A DNA stretch of 64,000 bases from a phage. Both the position numbers and the translations under genes were made by a program. Below the pieces are notes generated by a model. It ran no database searches. It was not told the origin of the DNA and saw nothing but the letters and a program-made list of their open reading frames with translations. Shown here piece by piece: positions 5,434 to 55,616 of this stretch. The DNA is taken from NCBI GenBank assembly GCA_025611195.1, contig GCA_025611195.1_4718.2. One strand, given 5' to 3'. Each line of letters begins with the position of its first letter. The stretch's first letter is position 1.

Positions 5434-5451
5434 CCCTCCCCGAAGGGAGGG
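5434..5451 (-). terminator. GC-rich stem-loop CCCTCCC-CGAA-GGGAGGG
   Basis: Perfect 7-bp inverted repeat between two minus-strand genes; no clear U-tract. Confidence 0.4.
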
Positions 5452-5461
5452 CGGTTAATGA

Positions 5462-6019
5462 TTACTCCATCCATACTTCTTCGTCGTAATGATTTTCTAT
5501 CGCATTACGCCAAAAACGTACGGTGTCCAAACTAATCGGTGCGTAAAAATGTTGGTCAACGCCTACATTAAGTCCGTTGGCCTTCGCTAACATACAGCGA
5601 TGAATATGCCCGAATAGATTGAAGTAGCCCGGGTTTCTTTCGCTGGGTTTATGGCATAGCCAGTAGGATTCGTCATTGCTAATCGGCAATACCAACGGAT
5701 GTTCATAAACAGCAGCAAACCCCATACCGAGCAGTTTATCACGCCACGCGTCGAAGCTTAATCCTGTCGCTTTGTATGCGTCTTCGTCCCAATTCCCCAT
5801 TACCAATTGAACCTGGATATCAGAACGAATGGCTTCCACGAACTCGAACTTACCCCAATCACCTAAATGCCACAACACACTGTTCTTTGGAAGATTGTTG
5901 ATGGCTTTCAGCATATGTTGGTTCATATCGGCGACGCTTGCGAACGGACGGCGTGAATACGTCCATGTACGCTCGCTATCGAAATGGGTATCCGATGTAA
6001 AGAAGATGGGTGGGGTCAT
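5462..6019 (-). CDS. calcineurin-like metallophosphoesterase
   Basis: Motifs FTSDTHFD, LGDWG, GNWDED, GHIHR match the D-x-H / GD / GN(H)D / GHxH metallophosphatase pattern. Confidence 0.6.
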   Translation of the reverse strand: MTPPIFFTSDTHFDSERTWTYSRRPFASVADMNQHMLKAINNLPKNSVLWHLGDWGKFEFVEAIRSDIQVQLVMGNWDEDAYKATGLSFDAWRDKLLGMGFAAVYEHPLVLPISNDESYWLCHKPSERNPGYFNLFGHIHRCMLAKANGLNVGVDQHFYAPISLDTVRFWRNAIENHYDEEVWME

Positions 6020-6498
6020 TGATCTAATTGCTCCAGAAATGCGCGACCCGATTTACTTGCTTTTAAATGCTGTTCTGCGGAAGTAAGCAGAAGATCGGTT
6101 GGTGTGAATGCAGCGCTACCTTTCCACGCCGTTTTCAGTTTACCCTTTTCGATACTGAACTGAATCAGTTGTTGGGTACCGAAGTTAAGCGTGTTCGTCG
6201 CGGCGCTAAATACACCACCCATCATGCTGTAACCAAAGACTTTCACATTTTCCGTGTAGAAGTCATTGTCGATCAATTTGTTCTGGAGCTCGAGTTGATC
6301 GGACGGCAGCAATCCCCCATCAAAGACACTTAAAATACCAGCCAGGCGATACATACTCACCTTCCCTGCAACGCCCACCACGTAATTGCCATACACGGTT
6401 TCTTCCAGTTTAGCAACAACGGTGCGATCGTCGGAGGTTTTCATCGAAACCTCAATACCATCACCAACTTCTGTCAACGTTAAATCAACGATACTCAT
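6016..6498 (-). CDS. hypothetical protein (160 aa)
   Basis: ORF track; 4-nt overlap with upstream gene. Confidence 0.55.
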   Translation of the reverse strand: MSIVDLTLTEVGDGIEVSMKTSDDRTVVAKLEETVYGNYVVGVAGKVSMYRLAGILSVFDGGLLPSDQLELQNKLIDNDFYTENVKVFGYSMMGGVFSAATNTLNFGTQQLIQFSIEKGKLKTAWKGSAAFTPTDLLLTSAEQHLKASKSGRAFLEQLDQ

Positions 6499-6520
6499 TC
6501 ATCATTCTCCGCTTTCATGT

Positions 6521-7207
6521 TTAACACATGATTTCACCATGTTTCTTTTCAACATACGTATAAACATCATCCAAATAAGCAATGAGTTTATCCCGATTTG
6601 CACAAAGCGATTTAATCACCGCAATCTCTTTCATATAAAGCTGCTGACCTAACGCCGGATAAGTAATCCAAGCATAGCCGTCAGGCGCAAATTTAGAAAT
6701 AAGATAATCGGCGGTTTCCTGTAGTGCGAACTCTTTACTCATCTGACCGTAACGATGTTCGATTGCACGGATACCAAAACGTTCGCTATCCAGACGACCC
6801 ATATCCGCCAAACGAAGCACCTGAGAAGCAACCGAGCTACGTGGACCGGAGTATGAGGCGCGGTGTTCAGCAATAAGTACACGTATCTCCTCGATGTCTT
6901 CTGGTGTGAAAATATGTTGCTCGTTACGAAGCAGGATAACCGATGCACGAATACCTCCGATAAGGTGGTGGTACGTTCTGTTTTCGTGGCATGCAATATC
7001 ATGCATAAAAGCGGCAGTTAATAGACGACGACGTTCCGTGGGTCTGATGATGCCAACCACATCGGCAAGTTCATTTGCCAATTCGACAACAGCAAGCACG
7101 TGTTCTTCTTGATGAGCAAGATCATTTTTACGAATATTATCAATTACTTCAGTGCGTGTTTCCTGAGATAAGAAATTTAGACAATCCAACGAATATAAAG
7201 ATTTCAT
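6521..7207 (-). CDS. HD-domain phosphohydrolase candidate
   Basis: AAFMHDIACHE contains an H..HD signature; first gene after promoter motif at 7261-7280. Confidence 0.45.
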   Translation of the reverse strand: MKSLYSLDCLNFLSQETRTEVIDNIRKNDLAHQEEHVLAVVELANELADVVGIIRPTERRRLLTAAFMHDIACHENRTYHHLIGGIRASVILLRNEQHIFTPEDIEEIRVLIAEHRASYSGPRSSVASQVLRLADMGRLDSERFGIRAIEHRYGQMSKEFALQETADYLISKFAPDGYAWITYPALGQQLYMKEIAVIKSLCANRDKLIAYLDDVYTYVEKKHGEIMC

Positions 7208-7260
7208 CGCACGTACCTCTTTGAATCGGTAGATAGATTAATAGATATTGATTACTCACG

Positions 7261-7280
7261 TAAGTAATATAGCCGTGAAA
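7261..7280 (-). promoter_or_regulatory. promoter-like motif, minus-strand TTTCACGGCTATATTACTTA
   Basis: 20-mer identical to 30572-30591; TATATTAC core 57 nt upstream of the HD-domain operon start; hairpin immediately downstream. Confidence 0.5.
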
Positions 7281-7360
7281 GGATTTGTGTTGGTCCGTTT
7301 CGATGCCCATCGTATTTTATGGATTGTCGAATGACGTCATTTTTAAGGGACATCCCCGAC

Positions 7361-7389
7361 CTCCTCCCCACACCTTTCCTGGGGAGGAG
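7361..7389 (+). terminator. stem-loop CTCCTCCCCA/TGGGGAGGAG followed by TTTTAT
   Basis: 10-bp inverted repeat with plus-strand U-rich tail in the helicase leader. Confidence 0.4.
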
Positions 7390-7423
7390 TTTTATCATAC
7401 TTTCTATTAATTCGAGCGCGATT

Positions 7424-9505
7424 ATGTTGGATAGAATCAATCGTTTAATGAACCGAATGACGGTTAAAAATCAGAGTAACAATACCGTGCATATCGGGGG
7501 TATCGATGCGTGGCGTCTTTCAGATGACATTCAGCGTATATGGGGTACCTCCCGATTTATGAAACACATGTTTCGTAATTTCTCTTCTAGTGGACTCAGT
7601 CTCCACAACTTTTACCTTCCCGATTTCGTTTATATTCTCGAAACGATCATCGAAGCAAAGAATACCCGTAGTAACAAACGCATGCTGAAACACCTTATCG
7701 AGATACTACTGCAGGAAACATGGTTGCAAAATACCACCATCGAGCAGCCTGCAATCCTCGATAAAGCACGCATGAACAAAATGCTAACGCTCTCTTTGTT
7801 CGATTATCAAGATGAGTTCATCGACATCTATAACCGTAATGTACCTAAGTATCGACTGAAAGGATACGTGTGTGCGATGGGTGCTGGTGCTGGTAAAACG
7901 ATCACAGCATTGGCATTAAGCGCCGCAATGAACGTCGATGTATTTGTGGTCTGCTGCCCTAAGAACACCATGCGTTCAGCATGGCAATCCGATGTAAACA
8001 AAGCCATCGTTGATCCTGCAACAGAAACCGCGTTCTGGTCGGATACAATGCCACCATCACAGCTGCAGAAAAGCGATAAATACTATTTTTTACATTACGA
8101 ATCGATGGGCTTATTAAACGATGTGATGATCAAGCATAAACGCACAGCGAAGCGCGTTCTTATTGTTGTTGACGAAAGCCATAACTTCAACGACAAGAAC
8201 AGCCAACGTTCCCAGCGACTGGTTGATCTTGTACAGACAATGCGTCAAACCATGAATGCGGATGTGCACGTCTTGTTTATGTCGGGTACGCCTGTTAAAC
8301 AGATGGGTTCTGAGATGATCCCATGTTTAGGTTGTATCGATCCGATGTTCCAAGGACAGGTGGTCGATAGCTTCAAAGCAATTTACGGTTTAACCAGCAG
8401 CCGTGCTAACGATATCCTCAGACATCGTCTTGGGTTCATGATGCATGTCGTACCTAAAGAGGCTTACCGTAAAACCCGTCCGGAAGTTCAGGACGTTTAC
8501 GTGAAGCTCCCTAACGGTAGCGATTATACCATCTCGAGCATTCGTGACGACATGGCGATATTTGTACGCGATCGGGCGAAGTATTACAAGGATAACTGGG
8601 GACATTACCGAAAGATTTTTGATGATGCCTTGGACTACTATCGTAAGACTATTCGTACCGACGGAGAACGTAAAGAGCTATCTCGATACGAATCGATTGT
8701 TGCGCGTTTCCAGAAAGGTTACGATCCCGTCAGAGACAAAGAAGATGCGATGTTCTGCAACGCGTTTGAAAAACGTTCCATCATGCCAGTTCTTCCTTCT
8801 GATTTAAGGGTTGCTTTCAAAGACGCCAAGAGCGTCATCAAGTACGTTGGGTTGAAAATTCAGGGTGAAGCGTTGGCGCGTGTTCTGGGCGCAGCGCGCA
8901 TTCGGTGTCATGTCGACATGGTGGAATACATCGACTTCGAAGAGTACATCAATAACGCCGAAGCCAAAGTGTTGATCTTCACATCGTACGTTCAGGTGGT
9001 TGAACGCGTCGATAACATGCTTCGTGATGCGGGCTTCTTACCGGAACCCATTTACGGGAAGACCAACAAAAACATCAACCAAATACTTGCCCGTCTACGC
9101 GACGATCCTGACAGCGGTCCCGCTATCGCAACATTTGATAGCTTAGCTGAAGGGGTTCCGATGCTGATGTGTAATGTGGGTCTTTTCCTGAACAACCCGT
9201 GGCGCTCATCCGATGAAATCCAAGCCATCAGCCGTCTCGATCGTGTAGGGCAAACGCAACCTGTTCGGATTTATCGTTTCATGTTAGATACAGGAAGCGA
9301 AGGTAACGTTTCTACACGTAGCCACGAAATCATGGAGTTAAGTCGGCAGCTTGTTGAAGAAATCACGGGCGTCAAATACGTGGTGAACAAGCAAGATGAT
9401 GTTAACTTGCAGGAAACGTTAGCGATGGAAGGATACGATCAATACGTTACCGTAAACACCTCGGAATACGATATTAAACCACGACCTGCGTTCTTGGAAT
9501 GGTAA
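7424..9505 (+). CDS. SF2 helicase (Snf2/DExH-like)
   Basis: Walker A GAGAGKT, DExH box VVDESHN, motif III SGTP, motif VI QAISRLDRVGQ; ATG at 7424 lies downstream of hairpin 7361-7389 (track start 7319 would include the hairpin). Confidence 0.7.
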   Translation: MLDRINRLMNRMTVKNQSNNTVHIGGIDAWRLSDDIQRIWGTSRFMKHMFRNFSSSGLSLHNFYLPDFVYILETIIEAKNTRSNKRMLKHLIEILLQETWLQNTTIEQPAILDKARMNKMLTLSLFDYQDEFIDIYNRNVPKYRLKGYVCAMGAGAGKTITALALSAAMNVDVFVVCCPKNTMRSAWQSDVNKAIVDPATETAFWSDTMPPSQLQKSDKYYFLHYESMGLLNDVMIKHKRTAKRVLIVVDESHNFNDKNSQRSQRLVDLVQTMRQTMNADVHVLFMSGTPVKQMGSEMIPCLGCIDPMFQGQVVDSFKAIYGLTSSRANDILRHRLGFMMHVVPKEAYRKTRPEVQDVYVKLPNGSDYTISSIRDDMAIFVRDRAKYYKDNWGHYRKIFDDALDYYRKTIRTDGERKELSRYESIVARFQKGYDPVRDKEDAMFCNAFEKRSIMPVLPSDLRVAFKDAKSVIKYVGLKIQGEALARVLGAARIRCHVDMVEYIDFEEYINNAEAKVLIFTSYVQVVERVDNMLRDAGFLPEPIYGKTNKNINQILARLRDDPDSGPAIATFDSLAEGVPMLMCNVGLFLNNPWRSSDEIQAISRLDRVGQTQPVRIYRFMLDTGSEGNVSTRSHEIMELSRQLVEEITGVKYVVNKQDDVNLQETLAMEGYDQYVTVNTSEYDIKPRPAFLEW

Positions 9506-9511
9506 TTAAGA

Positions 9512-9538
9512 AGCTCTGCCTGATGTCAGGCAGAGCTT
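9512..9538 (+). terminator. intrinsic terminator after helicase gene
   Basis: AGCTCTGCC-TGATGTC-AGGCAGAGCT followed by TTTAT. Confidence 0.55.
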
Positions 9539-9604
9539 TATGCTGCGTTCGCTGCAAAATCGTATGACGTATATGCGTTGTACTTATTAAATAGGACTGA
9601 ATAC

Positions 9605-11056
9605 ATGAAACTCAAACAAAGCTGGAAAGACGAACTTCTTGCGTTAGTAAATAGCAAAAACAGTTTACAGCTGACATTAGACGACGTAAAATTTGAACTA
9701 ACTGAACCGGTAAGCGAAGTGCCCGGAACGGTTACTGTCACGATCAAACCGAACGATGATAGCCGTTACTTTAACGAGCAGTCTCTGACCTACGTTCGTC
9801 GAGACATCGCTAAAAACTTCACCGGGATCCCGTTACGGGTTATCGTTAAAAATGATACCGCCGTAAAGGATATCATCAACACGATCGCTGAACGTTACGG
9901 ATTGGTATTTGACACAACCGTCGACTTCCTCGAATCCGAGCTGAATAAACAAATTACGTTCGCAGACACCGGTATTAAAGACATCACGGTTCCGGTTGCA
10001 AACACGTCTTATGTTTGGGCTGGTAATCTTCAGTTCAACATTGCTAACGATACGTTAAGCTTGATTACGATCATCAAGAAAACCGATCTTACGAATCTGG
10101 TTTATCTGGATGGTGTTGAAGCTGATACAACGGGATCGTTACTATTAGCAACGACCTCGGTTATCGACGAAAACGGAAATACCGAAACAACTGAAGGTGT
10201 CCTTGACGCCGCGCACTTCCAGAATGTCCTGAACGTCATGGTTCGTTATGGTGATATTACCAACGAACAAATGCAACAAGCAATGCAGACAATTAACCAA
10301 AGCGAAGACGTTCGTAGAGTAGAGGTGAGATCATACGGTGACGCCGAATTACTGGTAACCACCAAGAAAGATTGGGCTATCGGTAGCCTTAAGGGTGCTA
10401 TGGCTGTTGGACGCGCTTCACCTAAACCGATCCAATACGTTCTTAAAACAAAAGGCGGCAGCATTATATTATCATTAAATGGTTGGACAAATGTTTCCAT
10501 CGATTGGGGTGATGGGAATAAGACGACGGAGGACTCAGTCGATAATGAATATCGGCACAATTATACGGACACTACAGAACGTACGATCGTCGCTACGGGT
10601 ACCCCTACCAACGTTGAAGATACAGAGGTACAGCAAAGCTTCACCGGTGGTAACATTACAGAAATCGTTGACTGGAACAACGGATTACCTAAGGCCCCAT
10701 CATTACTTGCGGCGAACAGTTTAACTAAGGTTCCTAATTATATCCCGGCATACTGGACATCGTTAGAAGGTATGTTTACGAGATGTAGCGTTATTAACGA
10801 CGTGAACATCACCAAATGGAACACCCGCAACATTACTTCAATGAAGGACCTCTTCTACGGTTGCGCTGCGTTCAACCAACCGATCGGTTCGTGGGATGTT
10901 TCGTCTGTTAAGAATATCGACAATATGTTGTCTGGATGCTTCGCGTTCAATCAGGATCTGAGTGGTTGGACATTCCCGGCAGGCACTTCACACATTAACT
11001 ACGACGCCATGACCGCCGTGTGGAGTACTGAACACAAACCACACTTCACCGAGTAA
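9605..11056 (+). CDS. protein with C-terminal DUF285/BspA-like repeats
   Basis: Track start is TTG at 9578; ATG at 9605 has AGGA RBS; C-terminus carries repeated FxxCxxFNQ(P/D)(I/L)xxW units. Confidence 0.55.
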   Translation: MKLKQSWKDELLALVNSKNSLQLTLDDVKFELTEPVSEVPGTVTVTIKPNDDSRYFNEQSLTYVRRDIAKNFTGIPLRVIVKNDTAVKDIINTIAERYGLVFDTTVDFLESELNKQITFADTGIKDITVPVANTSYVWAGNLQFNIANDTLSLITIIKKTDLTNLVYLDGVEADTTGSLLLATTSVIDENGNTETTEGVLDAAHFQNVLNVMVRYGDITNEQMQQAMQTINQSEDVRRVEVRSYGDAELLVTTKKDWAIGSLKGAMAVGRASPKPIQYVLKTKGGSIILSLNGWTNVSIDWGDGNKTTEDSVDNEYRHNYTDTTERTIVATGTPTNVEDTEVQQSFTGGNITEIVDWNNGLPKAPSLLAANSLTKVPNYIPAYWTSLEGMFTRCSVINDVNITKWNTRNITSMKDLFYGCAAFNQPIGSWDVSSVKNIDNMLSGCFAFNQDLSGWTFPAGTSHINYDAMTAVWSTEHKPHFTE

Positions 11057-11073
11057 AAAAAATAGTTAGCATA

Positions 11074-11106
11074 TCTTCCTCCCTACCCATAACGGGCGGG
11101 GAGGAA
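11074..11106. terminator. stem-loop between convergent genes (CTTCCTCCC/GGGAGGAAG)
   Basis: 9-bp inverted repeat between the ends of 9605-11056 (+) and 11125-11463 (-). Confidence 0.5.
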
Positions 11107-11124
11107 GGTTTATGTGGCTATGAC

Positions 11125-11463
11125 TTAGAACCAGAGTTCTTTCATGAGGTAGGCTTCCATATCGTAGATAAGCCACTCGTCAGGAATTTCTAAAGGATCG
11201 TCTTCGGTTAAGGTCAGCATGTGCAGGGCGAACGCACGCTTAATATCGTTCAGCAGTTTCTCGTCGTCGTAACCTTCAGGTAACTTACGGTCTACCAGTT
11301 GGGTTTGTTTATAGACAGCACAGAACGCTTCTGGGCTGTGTTTGTCCATCGGAAATTGTTCAGCAGCCTGAACCATCGTCAACGTCCAGCTTACAACATT
11401 GTAGCGCTCACCGTTAATTTCACTGAACTGATCATCGATTAAACAGATTTGTTGTACGTTCAT
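11125..11463 (-). CDS. hypothetical protein (112 aa)
   Basis: ORF track; 4-nt overlap with upstream gene. Confidence 0.55.
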   Translation of the reverse strand: MNVQQICLIDDQFSEINGERYNVVSWTLTMVQAAEQFPMDKHSPEAFCAVYKQTQLVDRKLPEGYDDEKLLNDIKRAFALHMLTLTEDDPLEIPDEWLIYDMEAYLMKELWF

Positions 11464-12353
11464 TCATTTTCTCCATTCTTATCTTGGTCGCAATCACACT
11501 CTTCGACGTCTTTCTTACTTAAACGCAAGACACCAAGTGCGGCATGCTTGAGTTCTTGCAACGCGCTTTTCAGCTGACCTTCTTCATCGAAATCAAAATA
11601 CTTCTCGTTGTAGCTTAATGCTGGAATCATATTTACGAGAGGCTCGATGGCAGGCATCAACATTTCAATAACAACCTTAGGATCAACAAAGCGTTCAAAC
11701 CCTTCAGGAAGTTTGCTCGCCACAACCTTATCGTTCTTGATGAAGAATTTGTTCTTGAATAAATCGTCAAGAATAGCGTTCTCTTCATCCGTACGTTTTG
11801 CGTGAGGACGATCGATCATCTGCACAAACACATCACTCAACGCTTCAGGCAGGGTCGGATTTTCACGAAGAGAAGTTCCAGCCGGAATTTCAATATCGAT
11901 CTTTGCCCACTCAACAACCTGGTGATCTCGTGTGTAGATAACATCGACTTCCCACGCCAGGCCGTCCGGACTTTCCACAGTGTAACGTGTTTTCGCTTGA
12001 CCTTCCGGAGCCATACGCTCAATGGCATCAAACATCTCGACTGGGATTTCGACTTCGCTTTCCGTTGCATCGCCTGGACCACGATACACCTTCGTGGTCA
12101 TGATGTATTTCGGTTCTTCGTTATCGATCTGTATCGCACGTGCGCGTACCTGACCTTTCACACCACCAACGGCCGTGTTATCAAACAACCATTGATGTTG
12201 CACCATATGTTCGATTTTTGATGCGACTTGACGAAGACGTTCAACACCGTCCTCAGCCAGTTTACCAAAGAAGACCAGCTCACGTTCCTGCTGTGTCTCA
12301 CCACTTAACATCATTAAATTGGCGATTTGTTTCACGCCTCTTACTTTTGACAT
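11460..12353 (-). CDS. hypothetical protein (297 aa)
   Basis: ORF track. Confidence 0.6.
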   Translation of the reverse strand: MSKVRGVKQIANLMMLSGETQQERELVFFGKLAEDGVERLRQVASKIEHMVQHQWLFDNTAVGGVKGQVRARAIQIDNEEPKYIMTTKVYRGPGDATESEVEIPVEMFDAIERMAPEGQAKTRYTVESPDGLAWEVDVIYTRDHQVVEWAKIDIEIPAGTSLRENPTLPEALSDVFVQMIDRPHAKRTDEENAILDDLFKNKFFIKNDKVVASKLPEGFERFVDPKVVIEMLMPAIEPLVNMIPALSYNEKYFDFDEEGQLKSALQELKHAALGVLRLSKKDVEECDCDQDKNGENE

Positions 12354-12368
12354 ACATGCTCCGGTTAT

Positions 12369-12390
12369 AAGGGCCTGCTTCGAGGCCCTT
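12369..12390. terminator. stem-loop AAGGGCCT/AGGCCCTT with plus-strand TTTTTT tail
   Basis: 8-bp inverted repeat between two minus-strand genes; U-tract on plus strand only. Confidence 0.4.
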
Positions 12391-12422
12391 CATTGATTTT
12401 TTGATTCCACCAAACGCTATCG

Positions 12423-13997
12423 TTACAATTCAAAATCTTCATCGATAACGCGCTGGGTAAGCACTTTGTCGCTGAAGAACTCCACCTTGCGCTGATGGTA
12501 TTTACGATGCGCTTCGATAGAAGTACATACCAGATACCAGAAGGTTGGCGTCATTCCTTCAAACTTCCCTTTCAGCTGACGCAGTCGCCCCAACACCTGA
12601 ATGTTACCGGTTCGTGACCCCATCGCTAACGTCATGAACGCCATCACCAAGTCAGGAAGGTCGATACCCGTACCTGCCGATTTCACCGTCGTAACGCTAA
12701 TATCGTTATCCAACAAGACCATGAAATCTTCTTCAGCCGTATAAGGACCGATCTCTAACTCAGGAATACGTTCACTAAGGTAATGCGACAACGACTTACA
12801 CATATCGACGGTTGCACAATACACCAGCATCTTCATACCTTCCTGATACTGGTTCATGAAACCTTTGATGATAACCGTATAGATGAAGTTAAAATACGCG
12901 AGTTTGAGTTGCTTGTTCTTCATGATAGACTGTTCGAATATCGTGTGAGAATAAGAACCCCCAAACCCTTTATATCTGACTTTATCTGTACTGCGTAGTC
13001 GATACGTCACGGCATTTACCGCAATGTATTTCTTGTATTCGCCTTTCGCATAACGGGCTTCTTTCGGATACATCAAATACAACATCCGCTCGATGAACGG
13101 ATCATCGGACACCGCCGTTGCTGACAGATAGATGATTTCCGGAATACTAGCGTAACACTTGACCTTAAACAAGAAATGCAATGCTTCATGGCACTCGTCA
13201 TGAATCAGAAGGCCTATGCCGGTCTTTTCCCAAAACTCAGCGGGATGGAAGGCATATGGCGCAACGCAGTTATTCTTCTCGTAGTCCGCAATATAACGTT
13301 GGAACATGTTCAAGGAGAACAATGCGATTTTGAAGTCGAGTTCGCCTTGTTCAACCAAGGTTTGAAACTCCAACATACTGTAACGAGGAATGTCAGGATG
13401 CGGTGGATCCTCCTTAGCGTTCCCGCGTATCTCGATAACATCCCCTGGTTCCATCCCGAAGAAGTTCAGTAGTGAGCTTCGCCAACCTGGCATGTATCTC
13501 GGCGACAGAATGATACCCGTCCGCACACCGCGTCGGAAGGTAATCTCCTGCGACATGGCCGTTTTTCCCGACCCCGTTTGAGCGGTGTTTAGGCTCATTC
13601 TGAAGGGGGTATCCTTACCCCCGTCCATGTACTCCAACCATTCTTGCTGATCTTCACGCCATGGGAACTTCCATTTCTTTACGAACTCCACTTCTTTACC
13701 TGGTGCCGGATCGTGGTAAACGATTTCCAACCACTCTTTTCGTATCCCTCGGGAAAAGATAAAATCCAAAAACGATTTCAACTGTTCGCGGAGTAAGTAT
13801 ACCTCACTATAATCGCTTCTTGCCGCGGCATACGTGTTTATGGTATCGGTAACCATTCTCCGTGTACGAGGGTCGCGCCGTTTCCTCAGATGCAAACAAC
13901 GGTCTCGAAGGTAATGGCCGATAAGATGGGCAAATCGAAGTCCGTATCCGCTCAGCCTCATGCCGTGCGAGAAGACATCGATACGAGCTAACTTCAT
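12423..13997 (-). CDS. SF2 DEAH-box helicase
   Basis: Walker A AQTGSGKT, DEAH-like box LIHDECHE, motif V TVKSAGTGIDLP, motif VI QVLGRLRQ. Confidence 0.65.
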   Translation of the reverse strand: MKLARIDVFSHGMRLSGYGLRFAHLIGHYLRDRCLHLRKRRDPRTRRMVTDTINTYAAARSDYSEVYLLREQLKSFLDFIFSRGIRKEWLEIVYHDPAPGKEVEFVKKWKFPWREDQQEWLEYMDGGKDTPFRMSLNTAQTGSGKTAMSQEITFRRGVRTGIILSPRYMPGWRSSLLNFFGMEPGDVIEIRGNAKEDPPHPDIPRYSMLEFQTLVEQGELDFKIALFSLNMFQRYIADYEKNNCVAPYAFHPAEFWEKTGIGLLIHDECHEALHFLFKVKCYASIPEIIYLSATAVSDDPFIERMLYLMYPKEARYAKGEYKKYIAVNAVTYRLRSTDKVRYKGFGGSYSHTIFEQSIMKNKQLKLAYFNFIYTVIIKGFMNQYQEGMKMLVYCATVDMCKSLSHYLSERIPELEIGPYTAEEDFMVLLDNDISVTTVKSAGTGIDLPDLVMAFMTLAMGSRTGNIQVLGRLRQLKGKFEGMTPTFWYLVCTSIEAHRKYHQRKVEFFSDKVLTQRVIDEDFEL

Positions 13998-16000
13998 AAC
14001 GTGAATACATCCTCCGGTTTAGGTTCTTTGCGCGGTAAAAGCATGTAGTCGATCGGATGATCCGGCTTCATGGTTGGGATATAACTGTTCGGGTTTTGGA
14101 ACGCATCCAGTTGCTCTTGGTGAGCGAACTTCATACTCAAGGAGCGCATGTTCATGTTCTTCTTGAAGGTGCTGAAGTATCGTGTTGTTCCCTGTTTCGG
14201 CATGCGATAATCTTTCGTGTGTGGCGAACGAATCATGCTGGCGTAGAGAATAACATCGAGATGCGAAAGGTTCATTCGCAGACGCTGTGCGCACAAGCGA
14301 TGCCAATAGTACAGCACGTTTGCAACTTCTTCCGGTGTTGCTTCGTCTTCCGAGAGGAACCCGGCACTGAAAGAACCTTTCCCGAATTTGAACTCACGTT
14401 CGATTTCTTTTGCGTATTCCATCATGTTTTTGTGGATTAACGGCATCTGGAATAACGTACGTGAATTGTCCCAATGTTTCAAGTCGAAAATCACAATCCC
14501 GTCAGACGTCACTTCCCAGCTATGGCGTTTAAGATAACGGATAAACGCTTTACTCGGTACAACAGGACGTCCGCAGAAATCGAAATTGACTTTGAGCTTA
14601 CGATAGCTTTCATCTTTCCTGTCGTAAATCTCCATATCGCAAAGCGTCATGTTAAACAGACGCTGTGGTATCAGCGAACTGATTTCTTCCGCTTCGGCTA
14701 CATCGTACAACATGTTCGCAAGACCTAACTTCATCTTAATCAGCACGTGTTTACCTTTCAGCTCACGTGCGAGTTTGATGTCGTTCATGTTCTGGCTGTA
14801 ACGAAGGATATGTTGATATTCCGGTGGGATTGGTGCTGTAGAGACCGTTGACGAACCGTCGTGGTGTTTGGTAGAAAGAATGTTCTGCGTTACCTGTTGC
14901 GAGCAGGTACGCGCTGCGCCATCGCCGACATTATCGGTTAATGCGAAGTTATGACTTAATTCACCATAACACGTTGTGCATACCCCAGCAGGATCGGGAT
15001 GATGACAATAGTTAACGGAGCGCATACGCACTGTGGTGCCGATCAATTCTTTCATATGTGGTTGTATCGCTACCAACGAACCGTCATCACGAATAATGAA
15101 TCGGCCGTGGAAGCCACGCAGGTCGGTCTCATCACGGATTGGCATCGGGATGGTCTCTCTACTACCACAATCACCAGGATGTAGTCGTTGCACAACCGCT
15201 GTCGCTATCTGAAGTTCACGACCGAAATATTCAGACTTTTTAATCTGCTCTTTGTTGAACAGCAACGATTTCGCCGCAGAACGACTTTCTTTCAAGCTGT
15301 CGGGAAGAGAGATCAAACCTGACGCGTACGACCGCATTACTGGATCACGGAATATCTCGGAGTTAATATCGGTCAAGAATCCACGCATCCCAATACACTG
15401 CAGCACCTGCCCAATCGAAACGTGTTCGGTTCTTACCGCACGTGCAATAGGGTTTGCATGTAATGTTTTATCGGTGCTCAGTACCTTTGTCAGTTTCTTG
15501 TATGCGCTTTCGATACCTTCGCGGGTGGGTTCCGCTTCAGCGATGATTTTCTTAACTTCGGGGTGTACGGTAATCTGATAAAAATCATCCGCACAAATAG
15601 TTGTTACGTATTCCTCCAACGCATACGTAAAGAAGTTATACACGTTGTTAAACATATCGAACAGTGCTTTCCAGAGAACCTCACGATTCTCTTGTGGGTA
15701 AGCATACATGCATTGACGATACGCTGCGCTTTGCAACGCTACCGATGAACCCGCTGTAAACTTACGTTTATCAACCAGGTTCTCTTTTGTCAATGGTGTC
15801 TCAGGATACATGCGATGTACAGACCAGTGCATGTAACTAAAGAAAATGCGTCGCGCACGTAATTCATGAACGCCATCGTCCATCTCGATATATACACGGT
15901 CATTAGGCTGTGCCCACTCGAATACCTCATCAACCGGCCAGTGCATAAGCTCGCGTGCCCTCACACGACGTTTCGTGGTGGTCGTCTGTGTTGTAGTCAT
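13994..16000 (-). CDS. multisubunit RNA polymerase beta-prime, C-terminal subunit
   Basis: RSVNYCHHPDPAGVCTTCYGELS..AARTCSQQVTQNILSTKHH aligns by eye to E. coli beta-prime VRSVVTCDTDFGVCAHCYG..AAQSIGEPGTQLTMRTFH. Confidence 0.55.
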   Translation of the reverse strand: MTTTQTTTTKRRVRARELMHWPVDEVFEWAQPNDRVYIEMDDGVHELRARRIFFSYMHWSVHRMYPETPLTKENLVDKRKFTAGSSVALQSAAYRQCMYAYPQENREVLWKALFDMFNNVYNFFTYALEEYVTTICADDFYQITVHPEVKKIIAEAEPTREGIESAYKKLTKVLSTDKTLHANPIARAVRTEHVSIGQVLQCIGMRGFLTDINSEIFRDPVMRSYASGLISLPDSLKESRSAAKSLLFNKEQIKKSEYFGRELQIATAVVQRLHPGDCGSRETIPMPIRDETDLRGFHGRFIIRDDGSLVAIQPHMKELIGTTVRMRSVNYCHHPDPAGVCTTCYGELSHNFALTDNVGDGAARTCSQQVTQNILSTKHHDGSSTVSTAPIPPEYQHILRYSQNMNDIKLARELKGKHVLIKMKLGLANMLYDVAEAEEISSLIPQRLFNMTLCDMEIYDRKDESYRKLKVNFDFCGRPVVPSKAFIRYLKRHSWEVTSDGIVIFDLKHWDNSRTLFQMPLIHKNMMEYAKEIEREFKFGKGSFSAGFLSEDEATPEEVANVLYYWHRLCAQRLRMNLSHLDVILYASMIRSPHTKDYRMPKQGTTRYFSTFKKNMNMRSLSMKFAHQEQLDAFQNPNSYIPTMKPDHPIDYMLLPRKEPKPEDVFTL

Positions 16001-16145
16001 TATTGCTTTCCGATTTAAATGGTTTTATCATACGGTTTACCAAATCCGTTGGACTTTACTATCGTTGTGATAGCATCGGGAATCCCTTCCCTTAGGTTAT
16101 GTAGGTGTTAATATATCTCCACTGCTGTCGTAAAGGTCAGCAGCA

Positions 16146-16631: not shown

Positions 16632-16744
16632 AATCTCATTTCCTCTTATACGTTCGGATAGATGACATGTTGGATATACGTTGCCTTTGCATATATTGCT
16701 TTATTTCCGTCAGAAATAACGGAAAATAAAAACAACGACATAGT

Positions 16745-16775
16745 TCCCTCCCACCTCCACATGGGAGAGGGAGGG
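16745..16775 (-). terminator. GC-rich stem-loop (CCCTCCC/GGGAGGG)
   Basis: Inverted repeat in the 16632-16788 intergenic region. Confidence 0.4.
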
Positions 16776-16788
16776 CTATTCGTGTTTA

Positions 16789-17177: not shown

Positions 17178-17528
17178 TTAGCAATCGTTTAAAACTTTTT
17201 CGATACGATGGTTGACGAGTTCATTGAACGACTCTTCAACTTGTTCGATAATTTCATCAACGTCGATATCTAATTGTTGGGGTTGGATAACATGCTCTTT
17301 CATGGTTTCTAACCAGTATTCGGCTTTAACCATAACGTTAGCTACTTGTTCGACCTGGCTGCGTATGTCGACGATCTGGCAGTCAGGATTTTTAATATCG
17401 ATGATGTGTCCGTGCTGATTGATAAAGCCTAGTTTATTCGACGCCTTTACCGCATCGCGGGCAAGTTCTTGCAAGATTAAATTATTTACGTAGTTCACTG
17501 CTACGGAACGATTTTCTTTATCACTCAT
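17178..17528 (-). CDS. small acidic protein, paralog family member 2
   Basis: ATG at 17528 with GAGGA RBS; the longer track ORF would read through hairpin 17607-17635; LILQELAR motif. Confidence 0.5.
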   Translation of the reverse strand: MSDKENRSVAVNYVNNLILQELARDAVKASNKLGFINQHGHIIDIKNPDCQIVDIRSQVEQVANVMVKAEYWLETMKEHVIQPQQLDIDVDEIIEQVEESFNELVNHRIEKVLNDC

Positions 17529-17606
17529 ACCAGGGATCCTCTTTAAGTCTTCACATTCTAGTGTTAAGCAGTTAAAATAAACCGTCCCTTTAATCAGCAT
17601 AAACAT

Positions 17607-17635
17607 CCTCCTCCTACCATGCGGGCAGGAGGAGG
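17607..17635 (-). terminator. stem-loop CCTCCTCCT/AGGAGGAGG
   Basis: 9-bp inverted repeat after the stop of 17647-18060. Confidence 0.45.
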
Positions 17636-17646
17636 CGTAATATGCA

Positions 17647-18060
17647 TCAGAAAGGTGTGCGATTCTTATATTCGAATAATGTCTGAAGGACACATCGTGT
17701 TAACGAGTTTTGTAATTCGATACGTCCTTGTTCTCCGAACAGATCCAACACCATCATCCCTTTTGCTGTTTTCTCTGCCACTTCTTCACAAATCTGTAAA
17801 TTGTACATGTCGTCATTGCCGAGTTCCTTTCGACCGATCGAACTGACACGCATCAACTCACCTTTACTATCGCGAACATCGGAGAATGCATCATAGACCG
17901 CATCGATGTTCGCAGAACGCGTCAAACCCTCCGCTTCGCGCCACTCTCGATATGTACCATCAAGCGTTTGTTCCTCGCCCGAGGTTGTTGATTCGCTGTT
18001 GGTGGTTGGGCGAATTAAATGGGGTGTTATCATCGCGATCACGCTGTCGTAATGGTCCAT
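17647..18060 (-). CDS. small acidic protein, paralog family member 3
   Basis: MMVLDLFGEQG and NLQICEEVAEK motifs resemble the neighbours. Confidence 0.5.
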   Translation of the reverse strand: MDHYDSVIAMITPHLIRPTTNSESTTSGEEQTLDGTYREWREAEGLTRSANIDAVYDAFSDVRDSKGELMRVSSIGRKELGNDDMYNLQICEEVAEKTAKGMMVLDLFGEQGRIELQNSLTRCVLQTLFEYKNRTPF

Positions 18061-20630: not shown

Positions 20631-20659
20631 CCCTCCCACAGCGTAAAGCGTAGGGAGGG
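20631..20659. terminator. stem-loop between convergent genes (CCCTCCC/GGGAGGG)
   Basis: Between the ends of 20272-20625 (+) and 20691-21971 (-). Confidence 0.5.
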
Positions 20660-29973: not shown

Positions 29974-30004
29974 AGTCCCTCCCCACCCGAAGGTAGGGAG
30001 GGAC
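29974..30004 (-). terminator. stem-loop GTCCCTCCC/GGGAGGGAC
   Basis: 9-bp inverted repeat after the stop of 30016-30480. Confidence 0.45.
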
Positions 30005-31438: not shown

Positions 31439-31465
31439 ACCCTCCCCGCCTTATGCAGGGAGGGT
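31439..31465 (-). terminator. stem-loop ACCCTCCCC/GGGAGGGT
   Basis: Inverted repeat between 31480-32118 and 30601-31416. Confidence 0.4.
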
Positions 31466-34723: not shown

Positions 34724-34765
34724 GGGACATCTCCTACAAATGAAAAAGAACGTTAGGACGTATAA

Positions 34766-34789
34766 GGGAGGGAGGTTGCCCTCCCTCCC
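34766..34789 (-). terminator. stem-loop GGGAGGGAGG/CCTCCCTCCC between chimallin candidate and beta-prime N gene
   Basis: 10-bp perfect inverted repeat; may set expression ratio between the two genes. Confidence 0.45.
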
Positions 34790-34815
34790 GTCAGATTACA
34801 TCGAACGTTCTTCCA

Positions 34816-38079: not shown

Positions 38080-38111
38080 CATCCTCCCAACCCGTAAGGG
38101 AAGGGAGGATG
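38080..38111. terminator. stem-loop between convergent genes (CATCCTCCC/GGGAGGATG)
   Basis: 9-bp inverted repeat between 36966-38060 (+) and 38127-40280 (-). Confidence 0.5.
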
Positions 38112-40347: not shown

Positions 40348-40371
40348 TAAAAAGAACCGATCCAGCCGAAG
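40348..40371 (-). terminator. intrinsic terminator-like hairpin with minus-strand U-tract
   Basis: Minus strand CCGATCTGGCTTCGGCTGGATCGG followed by TTCTTTTTAT, downstream of 40577-40990. Confidence 0.5.
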
Positions 40372-40576
40372 CCAGATCGGTTTAAAGGATAATAACTGAC
40401 AGAAAGATATCGATGATGTTCGTGAAACAAGATCTTCTCTCGTGTACAATGATGCCAGATCAGAGGGAGGTTGTAACACGAGAGGTGGTTCGCCAAAGAA
40501 GGAATAAAAACACGAACCTATCTTATTTCACTGATGGCACTAACCACTCAAAATATATAGTACTGTATGTAAAAGT

Positions 40577-44397: not shown

Positions 44398-44419
44398 AGC
44401 CTGCCCCGAAGGACAGGCT
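44398..44419 (-). terminator. stem-loop AGCCTG/CAGGCT
   Basis: Inverted repeat between the zinc-ribbon gene and 44055-44375. Confidence 0.4.
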
Positions 44420-46554: not shown

Positions 46555-47081
46555 TTAACGACAGCTTCCTCCCTCGGTGTTTTCGAGGGAGGTATTTGCC
46601 GTTTGAACACTTTCAACACGTTCGCAAAATCAGCGGCAATAATACAGGCCGAGGTTGATAGCTTATTGCTGAAAATGAGATCGTCCGGTAAACAATCGAA
46701 CTGAATACCATATTGCGTCTTTGTCTCATCAACGATCAGTGACGGTGTCGATCCTGTCTTCGCAATATCGGTGATGTACAAACGTAAAAATAATTCACCA
46801 TCTTCGCTATCGATAAAACGATAAGCGTTACCGGAAAACGCAGCATACGGCGTAACGATAAATTGAACACGATCGTCGGTCGGGTGGATTTGTAACCAAC
46901 GTGCGATATCACCGTTACTCACATTTTGCATACGTAACACCGTGAATGCGAACAGTGTATCGTGATGCTTGGAATAATGCAGCACATACGCCGCATCTTT
47001 CTTTCTGTGAATCCCTTCAATGTATTCTATTGTCGTGTAGCCTGATTTATATAGCTTTACTTGCGGTTTATCACTCATCAT
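46545..47081 (-). CDS. hypothetical protein (178 aa)
   Basis: ATGATGA start/stop overlap with upstream gene at 47078-47081. Confidence 0.5.
   Translation of the reverse strand: MMSDKPQVKLYKSGYTTIEYIEGIHRKKDAAYVLHYSKHHDTLFAFTVLRMQNVSNGDIARWLQIHPTDDRVQFIVTPYAAFSGNAYRFIDSEDGELFLRLYITDIAKTGSTPSLIVDETKTQYGIQFDCLPDDLIFSNKLSTSACIIAADFANVLKVFKRQIPPSKTPREEAVVNQK
46566..46592. terminator. stem-loop CCTCCCTCG/CGAGGGAGG
   Basis: 9-bp inverted repeat at the convergent junction of 45712-46554 (+) and 46545-47081 (-). Confidence 0.45.
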
Positions 47082-49617: not shown

Positions 49618-49872
49618 GATAGAAATCCTTAGTATGTTTGATATGTTGTTTAATTGACATATTAAGTTTAAAAGAGGTTATGTTTTACGTATTGTTAATA
49701 ACGTATTCTTATCTCTATTAAGCTATGTTCTATCTAAAGATAGTAAACAGATATAATGCTCCCCACCTCCCCATTCTCCCAAGTAATACTGGCCTACCGG
49801 CCCTCTCCTTTTTAAGGGAGAGAGTAAGCATTCAGTATTGCTCAAATGAATAAGCAAAACAGTATAAACTTA

Positions 49873-49896
49873 CCGTCTCGAGACAACTCGAGACGG
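49873..49896 (-). terminator. intrinsic terminator-like hairpin CCGTCTCGAG/CTCGAGACGG
   Basis: 10-bp perfect inverted repeat; minus strand followed by TAAGTTTATACTGTTTTG. Confidence 0.5.
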
Positions 49897-51381: not shown

Positions 51382-51513
51382 GTCTGACCTATGTGGTATG
51401 GATGACAACGCTTTGCCTTCCGCGAGTGTAATCAGGAAGGTAATGTAGGTTTATTTTAATCTCCATTTCGCGATGATATGACAGTCTTTATTACGTTTAC
51501 CATCTGAGGGAGC

Positions 51514-52910: not shown

Positions 52911-52939
52911 CCTCCTCTGGGAATGGAACCCAGAGGAGG
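52911..52939. terminator. stem-loop CCTCCTCTGGG/CCCAGAGGAGG
   Basis: 11-bp perfect inverted repeat between 51514-52758 (+) and 52952-53260 (-); plus strand followed by a T-rich run. Confidence 0.5.
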
Positions 52940-53260: not shown

Positions 53261-53304
53261 GGCGTACCTCAACGTTATACGTCGTTAGTATTATAATACG
53301 TTAT

Positions 53305-53334
53305 AGTCTCCCCGCCGGTATTAACGGGGAGTCT
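53305..53334 (-). terminator. stem-loop after terminase gene (CTCCCCG/CGGGGAG)
   Basis: Inverted repeat just after the terminase stop at 53346. Confidence 0.45.
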
Positions 53335-53345
53335 GCGGACTACTC

Positions 53346-55577
53346 TTAGAAAAAACCCCCTGGTCTGTATTGGCCCATCGTCATCCACGCGTTACGAGAA
53401 ATATTCCGTTCGTTCGAAGAGCGACTTATTTGACGATACGTATTCGCTCGTTCCTCCCTTGCTTTCGTAATCATTGCGTCGATAGAGACAGACGCTGAAT
53501 CCTCCCCACGTATTTTTCCTTTATAGGTAAGAAGCTCCGCCTCCAACCGATCCAAGATAAGGCCATTGGTTTCGGTCTTAAGCAGCTCATAGATTTCAGC
53601 AACGCGTTGACGTAGCTTCGCCTGCTGTTGGTTAAGATAAGCTTCATACGGATCTATTTCACCCGTCACAGATGCCGGTAAACGACTCATGACTTTAAGC
53701 GGATCGATACCGTAATGAATCTGTTTCTTAGCGCGCTTGATAAACCACATCGCTAACATCCATGCGAACGTCATGTCATCGTGCATTCCATCCTGGTGGT
53801 CGACACGCCCATCTTTGATAACCAACCCAAGAATCTCGGAACACAGCATCTTATCGCGTAACTGCCCGCGGGTTTCTACGATACCTTCCATCAAGATGTC
53901 GGAATACAACTCCATGCGTTTGCGTGCATCCGTCGTGAAGCCCAAATGCCGTTTACGCTGAGCGTACCAACTTTCATCACGCATGCTCAACGGCAGTTTC
54001 AGGTCTTCGAACATTGCTGGATTATCGGCATGTCTGTCCACAATCGTGTTGTATACACGTTTGAATACGTCGATGCCTGCTTGCCGCAAGAACTCTTCAA
54101 TTGCGTCTAACAACATGATCGCACTGCTCTTACGTTCGGGAATCAACGTAACGTTCTTATAACGCATCATGAAGTTGGCCATCCAACGAGCAAAAGAAAG
54201 CAGACTCAGTTTATTAAAACGTCCTGTCGCAACAACTTCTGCTGTTTCCACATCCACCATCACCAAACCGATCGCGTCACGACCAATCGCGTCACTGGTA
54301 TCTAAACCAGCAACCACCTTATTGTTCTGCATGTATGTCTCGATTTGACCTCGAGGTATATACCAGTTAATGCAGTAGCCTTCAGGTGAGATCTCGATAT
54401 GGTCGATTTCACGTTGTCCTGCCATGATCATCTCAACCATCTCAGCGGTTAACGGGCTTTCTGCTGAACCGTTGGTCCAAATGTTCATGTAGTCACGGTC
54501 TTTCTGAAGTTTATCACCTTCCGTTTCGTTCATGGTTTTTGCTAACCATTCGTCACTGAATCCCAATTGAGCATGGTTCCATTGTGCCCCGATCCTGACG
54601 GTCGCTTTGCTGAGCTCGCATGGTACGTTGTTCAATACCGTCTGATGCAGATGCTTTTCGTTACGGCAGTCAAAGAAACTTTCAGAAAACGGCGCGGAAC
54701 GCATGAAAACTTCATAAGCCCATTTACCCTCGCGTTTATCCAATTCACCTGCTGTTGTCGTATAGATGATACTTGTCAGGTCGCCGTTGCTTAATGCTTC
54801 ATCGCGTGCTGCACCCATCGCACCGATACCAGCAGGGACAATGATTTCGATGTATTTCGTAAACGCGGTTTCGTCGCTATGGAATATCGGGGTTGTTAGA
54901 CCACGACCGATGTTTGTTGCTTGTTTCTTATCCGAACGTGGAATCTTTACCGATAACTTGTTCTTGAAACGCGTGTAGGTTACGTTCTCTTTGTTCGATG
55001 AATCACGGCTATCCAGCGTCCAGAGATACGCAGGCAGTAGATCGCGTATACTACGCACATCTTCTACTGTTTTCGTACGGGCGTCACCGTCTTTTGTTAA
55101 CTGAATAACCTCGGTGTTTCGACTACGAACATAGGTTAGATAGCAGAACAATCCTAACATGGTCATGGATTTACCCGTCTGACGTATCTGTATCTGATAC
55201 CAGTTCGTTCGGGTAAATATTCCCCAGAGCATCGGAATGTTACCGCGGTTAGCACGGAACGAGATCTTGTTATCACCCGCTTTAGCCGGAACACGCATCA
55301 CTTCACGGAAGAAGTACCACGGATTAAGATAGCATTCCGCACTGATCATCTGAATCTGTTCTGACGTCAAATTCGGTGCGTGGGGGTCAACACCGATTAA
55401 TCTTGGGTTTAATAACGCCATGAAAAACGCAGAGTTTCGGACACCGAATTCACGACGATACAAGATCGCTAAATCACGCCAACTTGTGTTTGTTGTTTCC
55501 CAGTGTGGAACAGCTTGAGGAAAATAATCCCAATCTTCCTCAAACAAGATGATTTTCTTCGGATCGACAATCGACAT
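53346..55577 (-). CDS. terL: terminase large subunit
   Basis: Walker A-like QIRQTGKSMTM; nuclease-domain motifs VVAGLDTSDAIGRDAIGLVMVDVE and DGMHDDMTFAWMLAMW. Confidence 0.65.
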   Translation of the reverse strand: MSIVDPKKIILFEEDWDYFPQAVPHWETTNTSWRDLAILYRREFGVRNSAFFMALLNPRLIGVDPHAPNLTSEQIQMISAECYLNPWYFFREVMRVPAKAGDNKISFRANRGNIPMLWGIFTRTNWYQIQIRQTGKSMTMLGLFCYLTYVRSRNTEVIQLTKDGDARTKTVEDVRSIRDLLPAYLWTLDSRDSSNKENVTYTRFKNKLSVKIPRSDKKQATNIGRGLTTPIFHSDETAFTKYIEIIVPAGIGAMGAARDEALSNGDLTSIIYTTTAGELDKREGKWAYEVFMRSAPFSESFFDCRNEKHLHQTVLNNVPCELSKATVRIGAQWNHAQLGFSDEWLAKTMNETEGDKLQKDRDYMNIWTNGSAESPLTAEMVEMIMAGQREIDHIEISPEGYCINWYIPRGQIETYMQNNKVVAGLDTSDAIGRDAIGLVMVDVETAEVVATGRFNKLSLLSFARWMANFMMRYKNVTLIPERKSSAIMLLDAIEEFLRQAGIDVFKRVYNTIVDRHADNPAMFEDLKLPLSMRDESWYAQRKRHLGFTTDARKRMELYSDILMEGIVETRGQLRDKMLCSEILGLVIKDGRVDHQDGMHDDMTFAWMLAMWFIKRAKKQIHYGIDPLKVMSRLPASVTGEIDPYEAYLNQQQAKLRQRVAEIYELLKTETNGLILDRLEAELLTYKGKIRGEDSASVSIDAMITKAREERANTYRQISRSSNERNISRNAWMTMGQYRPGGFF

Positions 55578-55589
55578 ATAAACTCCTCC

Positions 55590-55616
55590 GATGGAGGGTG
55601 CCGAGCACCCTCCATC
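55590..55616 (-). terminator. stem-loop GATGGAGGGTG/CCCTCCATC
   Basis: Inverted repeat between 55628-57367 and the terminase start. Confidence 0.4.

Follow-up and report, generated by a model that had tools for sequence, protein, structure and literature searches.

Polypyrimidine/polypurine hairpins at gene ends of a Goslar-like jumbo phage as probable phiKZ-type transcription terminators

A 64,000-nucleotide stretch of phage DNA (assembly GCA_025611195.1, contig GCA_025611195.1_4718.2; referred to here as the window) carries a family of intergenic hairpins in which one arm is rich in pyrimidines and the other in purines. These hairpins are interpreted here as factor-independent transcription terminators, meaning 3'-end-forming stem-loops, of a type conserved in phiKZ-like nucleus-forming jumbo phages. 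A probability of roughly 0.8 is placed on this interpretation. It is supported by the position of the hairpins just after stop codons, by their presence at every convergent junction, and by the strand-specific tails that follow them.

The window is 93–96% identical across its full length to positions 135,524–200,200 of Goslar (vB_EcoM_Goslar, MK327938.1), a nucleus-forming, phiKZ-like Escherichia jumbo phage of the Chimalliviridae. Gene models and gene numbers were transferred from Goslar. The minus strand carries most of the genes, and mapped genes leave 12.1% of the window uncovered.

A sequence-only reading of this DNA had listed 14 hairpins, placed them at gene boundaries, and described many of them as lacking a U-tract. 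All three statements are borne out. A stable hairpin with a CCYCC-type and a GGRGG-type arm is present at 14 of the 14 listed positions, with free energies of −14 to −27 kcal/mol and stems of 7 to 13 pairs. The pyrimidine arm comes first in 12 of these and the purine arm in two (34764 and 55589). A strict test counted exact 6-nucleotide pyrimidine words with at least four C residues and a reverse complement 3 to 30 nucleotides downstream, and 200 dinucleotide-preserving shuffles served as the null. Fifteen pyrimidine-first hairpins were observed against 0.48 ± 0.67 expected (maximum of 3 in the shuffles), so the hairpins are real and far from chance. For purine-first hairpins the count was 2 against 0.55 expected. 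An exact pyrimidine-arm/purine-arm (Y/R) core of at least 6 nucleotides is present at 17 window sites. A generic scan for hairpins with 7 or more pairs, in which one mismatch was tolerated, returned 232 matches and was too noisy to be used. The order of the arms is strongly biased: the ratio of pyrimidine-first to purine-first hairpins is 15:2 for the window, 41:8 for Goslar, and 18:2 for bases 1–100 kb of phiKZ, and shuffled sequence would give equal numbers of both.

Placement of the hairpins follows the ends of genes. Thirteen of the 15 strict pyrimidine-first hairpins are in non-coding sequence. The distance from stop codon to stem is 5–32 nucleotides in 20 of 24 oriented cases, and this tight spacing stands against a distance of 2 to 255 nucleotides from the hairpin to the next start codon. 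All five convergent junctions of the window (161|162, 172|173, 190|191, 202|203, and 211|212) contain a hairpin, as do 19 of 20 in the complete Goslar genome. No downstream gene is present at these junctions to be regulated. The sequence-only reading had also stated that some open reading frames (ORFs) cross hairpins by means of implausible starts, and this is confirmed for ORFs 7319..9505 and 17178..17693, for which the Goslar-based starts are 7424 and 17528.

The stem is followed on the transcribed strand, within 0–5 nucleotides in most cases, by the sequence (T)TATG(CCG), and the commonest form is TTTATGCCG(Y). By our own count, TTAT or TATG lies within 12 nucleotides in 17 of 25 window sense tails. 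The corresponding Goslar count, TATG within 14 nucleotides of the purine core, is 40 of 55 sense tails and 6 of 23 antisense tails, and such a match occurs in 3.2% of random 14-nucleotide background windows. The G of TATG lies 4–9 nucleotides past the stem. Four further hairpins lack polypurine arms and carry a TTAT-type tail (9511, 40355, 44398, and 49873), which in three of the four reads TATGC. The tail, and not arm composition alone, therefore defines the class. A weaker case without polypurine arms is found at 12369, and two Y/R hairpins (49801–49824 and 51416–51440) are also members beyond the 14 first listed. The loops share the orientation of the tails. UUCG tetraloops closed by a C-G pair are on the sense strand in four of four cases (5434, 29975, 40355, and 44398), and the GCAA loop of 34764 is on the sense strand as well.

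Canonical Rho-independent terminators share with these elements a G+C-rich hairpin just downstream of a gene. They differ in having a U-tract of 7–9 nucleotides, and the bidirectional ones have an upstream A-tract, a role taken in the window by CATA...TATG flanks. The window hairpins have no long U-tract, carry the tail word TATG(CCG), and show purines and pyrimidines strongly segregated between the arms. A canonical Rho-independent terminator, defined by at least 5 U in the 8 nucleotides after the stem, was considered as an identity for the family and rejected, as such a tail is found in just 5 of 25 sense-strand tails. A scan with the Rho-independent consensus over bases 1–20,000 flagged just the hairpin at 17607 and an inner sub-hairpin (7373–7387) of the element at 7359.

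The closest described counterparts are the terminators of phiKZ and 201phi2-1. ONT-cappable-seq mapped 133 termination regions in phiKZ (Putzeys et al. 2024, microLife, PMC10914365). In 61 of these regions, which are predicted to be intrinsic terminators, the common motif is 5'-BCCYCCCCHWWDGGGRRGGBYTTATKYYGT-3', in which TTAT comes after a stem-loop (PMC10914365). Six bidirectional termination regions between convergent genes and terminators in 5' untranslated regions (5'UTRs) are described in the same source (PMC10914365). For 201phi2-1, 132 termination sites were reported, 15 of them bidirectional, and motif A is described by the authors as strongly resembling that of phiKZ (PMC11512511). 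Eight strong 201phi2-1 terminators spanning the motifs were assayed in vivo in a two-reporter terminator trap in the uninfected host (PMC11512511).

The phiKZ motif and the window hairpins share CCYCCC/GGGRGG arms, pyrimidine-first polarity, short loops, and a TTAT(G)(Y)(Y)G tail in place of a U-tract. The tail reads TTATGCCGY in the window and TTATKYYGT in phiKZ. Both sets of sites lie just past stop codons, both include bidirectional copies at convergent genes, and the two phages are of one clade, which has two multisubunit RNA polymerases. The window stems differ in that many are longer and built in two tiers, which include an inner CCC-GUAA-GGG helix as well as A.A or U.U internal loops, and the loops extend up to 9 nucleotides. 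Tail spacing is off by 1–3 nucleotides, and a few copies are purine-arm-first or tail-less. The 3' ends were mapped in phiKZ, whereas the window hairpins are described from sequence. In 201phi2-1, the combination of motifs A and B lengthens the hairpin, a parallel to the long two-tier stems of the window (PMC11512511). That phage differs in host and genus, and it was compared through its published description rather than its sequences.

The phiKZ genome itself, searched over bases 1–100 kb with the same descriptor as the window, contains 18 pyrimidine-first and 2 purine-first hairpins, all within 30 nucleotides of stop codons. One example reads GCCCTCCC-loop-GGGAGGGC-TTATG. Hairpins follow orthologous genes in both phages at the terminase gene gp25, gp26, gp42, the DNA polymerase gene gp50, and gp52 (phiKZ numbering). 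The phiKZ terminase gene gp25 has a Y/R hairpin in the place orthologous to that of window gene 213, and gp26 has a hairpin in the place orthologous to that of gene 214. Under a strict criterion, the comparison of orthologous positions found a hairpin in both phages at 5, in the window alone at 4, in phiKZ alone at 4, and in neither at 11, which is suggestive and not significant.

A covariance model (R1) was built from the eight phiKZ copies of uniform geometry only; a MAFFT alignment of all 25 phiKZ copies left the 3' arms out of register and was not used for the model. R1 found window positions 5420–5455 on the minus strand, the sense strand, with 34 bits and E = 7e-9. Other scores were E = 0.008 on the minus strand and 0.47 on the plus strand for 20631, a marginal E = 0.03 on the plus strand for 7359, and E = 0.1–10 for the remaining members. 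Thirteen of the 17 matches with E < 10 fall on hairpins of the family. The weaker scores are attributed to the model, which allows short loops only, and to the longer, two-tier window stems.

The pattern CCCTCCC-N3-9-GGGAGGG-N0-3-TTATG was scanned against 2.9 million IMG/VR contigs and was found at 120 loci or more. Among the 120 matches listed, 82 come from contigs of more than 200 kb, and for 86 the contig encodes proteins 25–60% identical to Goslar or phiKZ proteins. This distribution suggests that the signal is a hallmark of this jumbo-phage clade. The gene content of the window is consistent with membership in that clade. The Goslar RefSeq/GenBank annotation of the stretch includes genes for RNA polymerase beta and beta' subunits, nuclear shell protein, DNA polymerase, PhuZ, terminase, and tail sheath, and homologues of phiKZ gp68, gp71–74, gp54, and gp50, including phiKZ-type RNA polymerase subunit genes, are present. 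These findings place the source phage in the clade that has both a virion and a non-virion multisubunit RNA polymerase. The sequence-only reading had proposed terminators or processing elements for phage polymerases, unlike host intrinsic terminators, and the likeness of motif and context to phiKZ and 201phi2-1 lends this proposal support. From the comparison we infer that 3' ends would form at the window hairpins and that a phage polymerase would respond to them.

In the proposed mechanism, the nascent RNA would fold into a G+C-rich hairpin with a CCYCCC 5' arm, a GGGRGG 3' arm, and a loop that is often UUCG or GNRA. As the hairpin closes, the phage multisubunit RNA polymerase would stop and release the transcript in or just past the A/U-rich UUAU. 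The (U)UAUG(CCG) sequence within 0–5 nucleotides of the hairpin would stand in for a long U-tract, and the G of TATG, 4–9 nucleotides past the stem, would lie where release normally occurs. A Y/R palindrome reads alike on both strands and, with CATA...TATG flanks, could terminate convergent transcription from both sides.

Several observations weigh against the terminator interpretation. No TTAT or TATG is found within 12 nucleotides on at least one sense strand of the hairpins at 29975, 38080, 46566, 49801, and 53305, and at 12369 the TTAT overlaps the end of the stem. The element at 7359 lies between divergent genes and has no gene upstream of it on its own strand. The fixed-spacing phiKZ IUPAC consensus had 0 matches in the window at up to 3 mismatches, a failure that follows from the differences in loop length and tail spacing, and the narrow R1 model scored one site alone strongly. 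No transcript 3'-end data for this phage or for Goslar were found in the literature searched. The 3'-end mapping in relatives cannot alone exclude exonuclease trimming back to a stable hairpin.

The tail may have a function of its own, beyond that of a weak-hybrid stand-in for a U-tract. The beta-like subunit of the non-virion RNA polymerase (nvRNAP) binds TATG on the non-template strand at late promoters. The tail is identical to this word, which suggests, speculatively, a polymerase-specific pause and release signal. It would be captured as the hairpin closes, pausing the enzyme and licensing release, and together with the arm polarity it would mark a terminator class tuned to the phage polymerases. 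This extension is tentative and on balance unlikely. At co-directional sites the TATG word might also allow immediate re-initiation.

A related and improbable explanation is a combined terminator and promoter. Here, the TATG tail of a co-directional site would double as an nvRNAP late promoter with G at +1, so that transcription stops at the hairpin and then restarts. The phiKZ late promoters do have the consensus TATG with the G as start site, and a transcript begun at the tail G of 5434, 44398, or 9511 would have a plausible 5'UTR that includes a GGAG of its own. Against this, TATG is equally frequent on both sides of hairpins at convergent junctions, at which promoter activity would run antisense into a gene, and the available portions of the phiKZ and 201phi2-1 papers make no mention of start sites that coincide with terminators. 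A coupled late promoter is possible at co-directional sites and is contradicted by the convergent sites as a general explanation.

Also improbable is a role limited to stabilizing or processing RNA 3' ends, in which the polymerase would read through and the transcript would then be cleaved or trimmed to a hairpin that protects the upstream message from 3' exonucleases. The hairpins suit such a role, being very stable, closed by UUCG or GNRA loops, and located directly after stop codons, and 3'-end sequencing in the relatives does not fully separate termination from trimming. The conserved TATGCCG(Y) tail, however, runs past the likely 3' end and would be superfluous if the RNA were trimmed; this speaks for a signal that is read on the DNA or by the polymerase. 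The terminator-trap assay of the eight 201phi2-1 terminators (PMC11512511) likewise stands against it. The paper on eCLIP (enhanced crosslinking and immunoprecipitation) of ChmC reported no hairpin-type binding motif.

Control of translation is very unlikely. The GGAGG of the 3' arm would be the Shine-Dalgarno sequence of the next gene and the ATG of the tail its start codon, with the CCUCC arm masking both. Hairpins that sequester a Shine-Dalgarno sequence are known in phage T4, for example in early transcripts of the lysozyme gene e, and they likewise pair a GGAGG-type sequence with an upstream complementary arm. In favor of translational control are the arrangement of GGGAGGG, 3–6 nucleotides, and ATG, which looks like a strong ribosome-binding site, and the Goslar annotation, which starts gp183 and the 31-amino-acid gp167 at tail ATGs. 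Unlike in T4, the GGAGG arm of the window hairpins does not serve any downstream gene as a ribosome-binding site. All convergent junctions have the same hairpin and tail, on both strands, with no gene following. At 5434 and 44398 the tail ATG and the downstream gene are in different frames, and at 31439 a 1-nucleotide indel relative to Goslar separates the tail ATG from the conserved start GAGGACAATCATG, so this stretch is not coding and gene 183 does not start at the tail ATG. In addition, the distance to the upstream stop is tight and that to the next start is variable. The Shine-Dalgarno/start-codon reading was rejected on the basis of these frames, the indel, and the convergent sites.

Differences from Goslar bear on whether the structure acts as RNA or DNA. 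At about 5% divergence, loops and flanks contain most of the changes, and the Y/R cores contain none. The stem at 29975 has one compensatory change from T-A to C-G, and a second change pairs as G-U on the minus strand only. At 17607 the change in the stem retains pairing as G-U on the transcribed (minus) strand only, and inner-stem changes are found at 20631 too. The G-U-compatible changes solely on the transcribed strand at 29975 and 17607 argue for an RNA structure on the sense strand. At 7359–7391 and 9511–9538 each loop is the exact reverse complement of the one in Goslar (CACCTTTCC versus GGAAAGGTG, and ATGT versus ACAT), and the stems are identical; the Goslar counterparts are at 7368–7392 and 9519–9542 of the extract labeled L001. 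Inverted loops on identical stems indicate that DNA-level flips, i.e., small inversions across the inverted-repeat arms, also occur. A purely DNA-level palindromic repeat with no RNA role, resembling repetitive extragenic palindromes or miniature inverted-repeat transposable elements or acting as a recombination or replication signal, would account for the near-identical ...CCTCCTCCAACCCGTAAGGGAAGGAGGAGG... copies at about a dozen Goslar sites and for loops inverted by recombination or template switching across the arms, but it is most improbable given tails and tetraloops oriented with transcription, stem changes that remain compatible with pairing on the transcribed strand only, placement that tracks stop codons, and phiKZ transcript 3' ends that map to the same motif (PMC10914365).

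The individual sites can be sorted by gene orientation. Four convergent junctions have hairpins assigned to both strands. The two-tier hairpin at 11074..11108, between genes 161 (plus) and 162 (minus), has tails TTTATG on the plus strand and TATGC on the minus strand and looks bidirectional. The hairpin at 20631..20659, between genes 172 (plus) and 173 (minus), has tails CATTTATGCCGTCG on the plus strand and TTATC on the minus strand. An 11-pair hairpin, CCUCCUCUGGG...CCCAGAGGAGG, at 52911..52939 between genes 211 (plus) and 212 (minus) has a CTATG tail on both strands. The two-tier hairpin CAUCCUCCC-AA-CCC-GUAA-GGG-AA-GGGAGGAUG at 38080..38110 lies between gene 190 (plus) and gene 191 (minus), the DNA polymerase homologue. 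It is a member of the AACCCGTAAGGGAA sub-family and is the window copy of a two-tier palindrome, CCYCYCC-AA-CCC-GTAA-GGG-AA-GGRGRGG with CATA...TATG flanks, that is near-identical at about a dozen Goslar junctions, mostly convergent. Many Goslar convergent-junction copies read CATAA-CCCTCCTCC-AA-CCC-GTAA-GGG-AA-GGAGGAGGG-AATATG. Goslar copies include, by extract label, L003 4151–4178, 27746–27777, and 48107–48138; L004 21990–22021 and 43445–43476; L006 24184–24215; and others. The fifth convergent junction has a plus-strand hairpin, UUCCUCCCUCG...CGAGGGAGG, at 46566..46594, 13 nucleotides past the stop of gene 202 (plus) with tail TATTTGCCGT. This hairpin is within the last 16 codons of gene 203 (minus) and has the motif tail on the plus strand only; the minus-strand tail lacks the motif.

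The remaining polypurine hairpins are mostly on the minus strand. At 5434..5451 (minus) the hairpin CCCTCCC-UUCG-GGGAGGG with tail TTTATGCCGCG begins 10 nucleotides past the stop of the gp157 homologue. The hairpin CCCTCCCTCTCCC...GGAGGTGGGAGGG (16746..16775, minus) is 13 nucleotides past the stop of gene 168 with tail AACTATG. Next to it, the gp167 homologue (window 16646–16741) has its Goslar start on the terminator-tail ATG, and this 31-amino-acid ORF may be an annotation artefact. The hairpin CCTCCTCCTGCC-CGCAU-GGUAGGAGGAGG (17607..17635, minus; tail ATGTTTATGCTG) is 11 nucleotides past the stop of gene 170. A 13-pair core (16 pairs with flanks), GUCCCUCCCUACC-UUCG-GGUGGGGAGGGAC, at 29975..30004 on the minus strand is 11 nucleotides past the stop of gene 182; its tail lacks TATG, and TTTTTAT starts about 9 nucleotides past the extended stem. 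The hairpin ACCCUCCCUGC-AUAAG-GCGGGGAGGGU (31439..31465, minus; tail CTATGCCGC) is 14 nucleotides past the stop of gene 184. At the adjacent start of gene 183 (window 31380–31436), a 1-nucleotide indel puts the conserved start at the ATG after GAGGACAATC. The purine-arm-first hairpin GGGAGGGAGG-GCAA-CCUCCCUCCC (34764..34791, minus; tail TTATAC) is 26 nucleotides past the stop of the nuclear-shell (ChmA) gene homologue. The hairpin CUCCCCG...CGGGGAG (53305..53334, minus) is 14 nucleotides past the stop of gene 213, which encodes the homologue of the terminase large subunit, and has no TATG tail. A 13-pair hairpin with the purine-containing arm first, CGAUGGAGGGUGC-UCG-GCACCCUCCAUCG (55589..55617, minus), is 10 nucleotides past the stop of gene 214, with TTTATATG 6 nucleotides downstream. 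A weaker Y/R hairpin, CCCUCUCC...GGAGAGAG (49801..49824, minus), is intergenic between genes 207 and 208.

The element at 7359..7391 on the plus strand, CTCCTCCCCA...TGGGGAGGAG with tail TTTTATCAT, is in a divergent intergenic region, 34 nucleotides upstream of the helicase gene start at 7424, and is annotated as a putative terminator in Goslar. It is probably a promoter-proximal (5'UTR) terminator, resembling those described for phiKZ and 201phi2-1.

Three of the hairpins without polypurine arms are also annotated as terminators in Goslar. These are a 12-pair hairpin at 9511..9538 (plus), 5 nucleotides past the stop of gene 160, with the same tail type (TTTATGCTGCG); a 12-pair UUCG hairpin at 40355..40382 (minus; tail CTTTTTATGCCGTCC), intergenic between genes 191 and 192; and the hairpin GAGCCUGUCC-UUCG-GGGCAGGCUU at 44398..44419 (minus), 9 nucleotides past the stop of gene 200, with the tail TTTATGCCGCG. 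The fourth, a 10-pair hairpin, CCGUCUCGAG...CUCGAGACGG, at 49873..49896 (minus), is 26 nucleotides past the stop of gene 208 and has TTTATAC 5 nucleotides downstream. The Goslar record thus annotates 4 terminators across these 19 sites, one of them of the polypurine type.

Strong intergenic hairpins without a TATG tail or Y/R arms are also present in the window. They are located at 3998–4026 (GAAGGTGGATGG...CCATCCACCTTC, overlapping the start of gene 153), 22000–22020 (GGTCCCC...GGGGACC), and 25330–25365 (UUCG loop, downstream of gene 176). A further hairpin at 25274–25297 abuts the 25297 copy of YTATATTAC, which we take to be the phiKZ-type early promoter word. This word has four exact matches, all on the minus strand (7264–7272, 25297–25305, 30575–30583, and 36784–36792). 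All four are intergenic, and each is upstream of a minus-strand gene, including the nuclear-shell gene and the nvRNAP subunit gp68 homologue. When one mismatch is allowed, the word shows no enrichment, with 26 matches where 29 would be expected.

An Rfam scan of the whole window found no family at the gathering threshold, and a tRNA search of the window found none. The group I intron model RF00028 gave two tandem matches on the minus strand, 32727–33093 (46.9 bits) and 33165–33501 (29.6 bits), both under the gathering score of 50. The two matches adjoin the RNA polymerase beta' gene. At this locus, Goslar has a single annotated intron and a NUMOD1/HNH ORF. The window lacks that ORF and has about 370 nucleotides without a Goslar counterpart in its place.

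This kind of terminator is known from phiKZ and 201phi2-1 (2024), and it does not appear to have been described before in E. coli phages of the Goslar type. The hairpin and tail would provide a simple, testable rule for marking the ends of transcription units in these phages. The standard terminator finders used in the Goslar record caught 1 of the 14 listed polypurine hairpins, together with three non-polypurine ones. Gene starts placed on a tail ATG, such as those of gp183 and the 31-amino-acid gp167, would be corrected. The hairpins are candidate insulators for synthetic biology in E. coli, and the arm polarity and TATG tail would serve as handles for studying termination by sigma-less multisubunit polymerases. 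The phiKZ terminator signal is kept across very divergent nucleus-forming phages with different hosts, and this conservation speaks for its recognition by the transcription machinery that these phages share.

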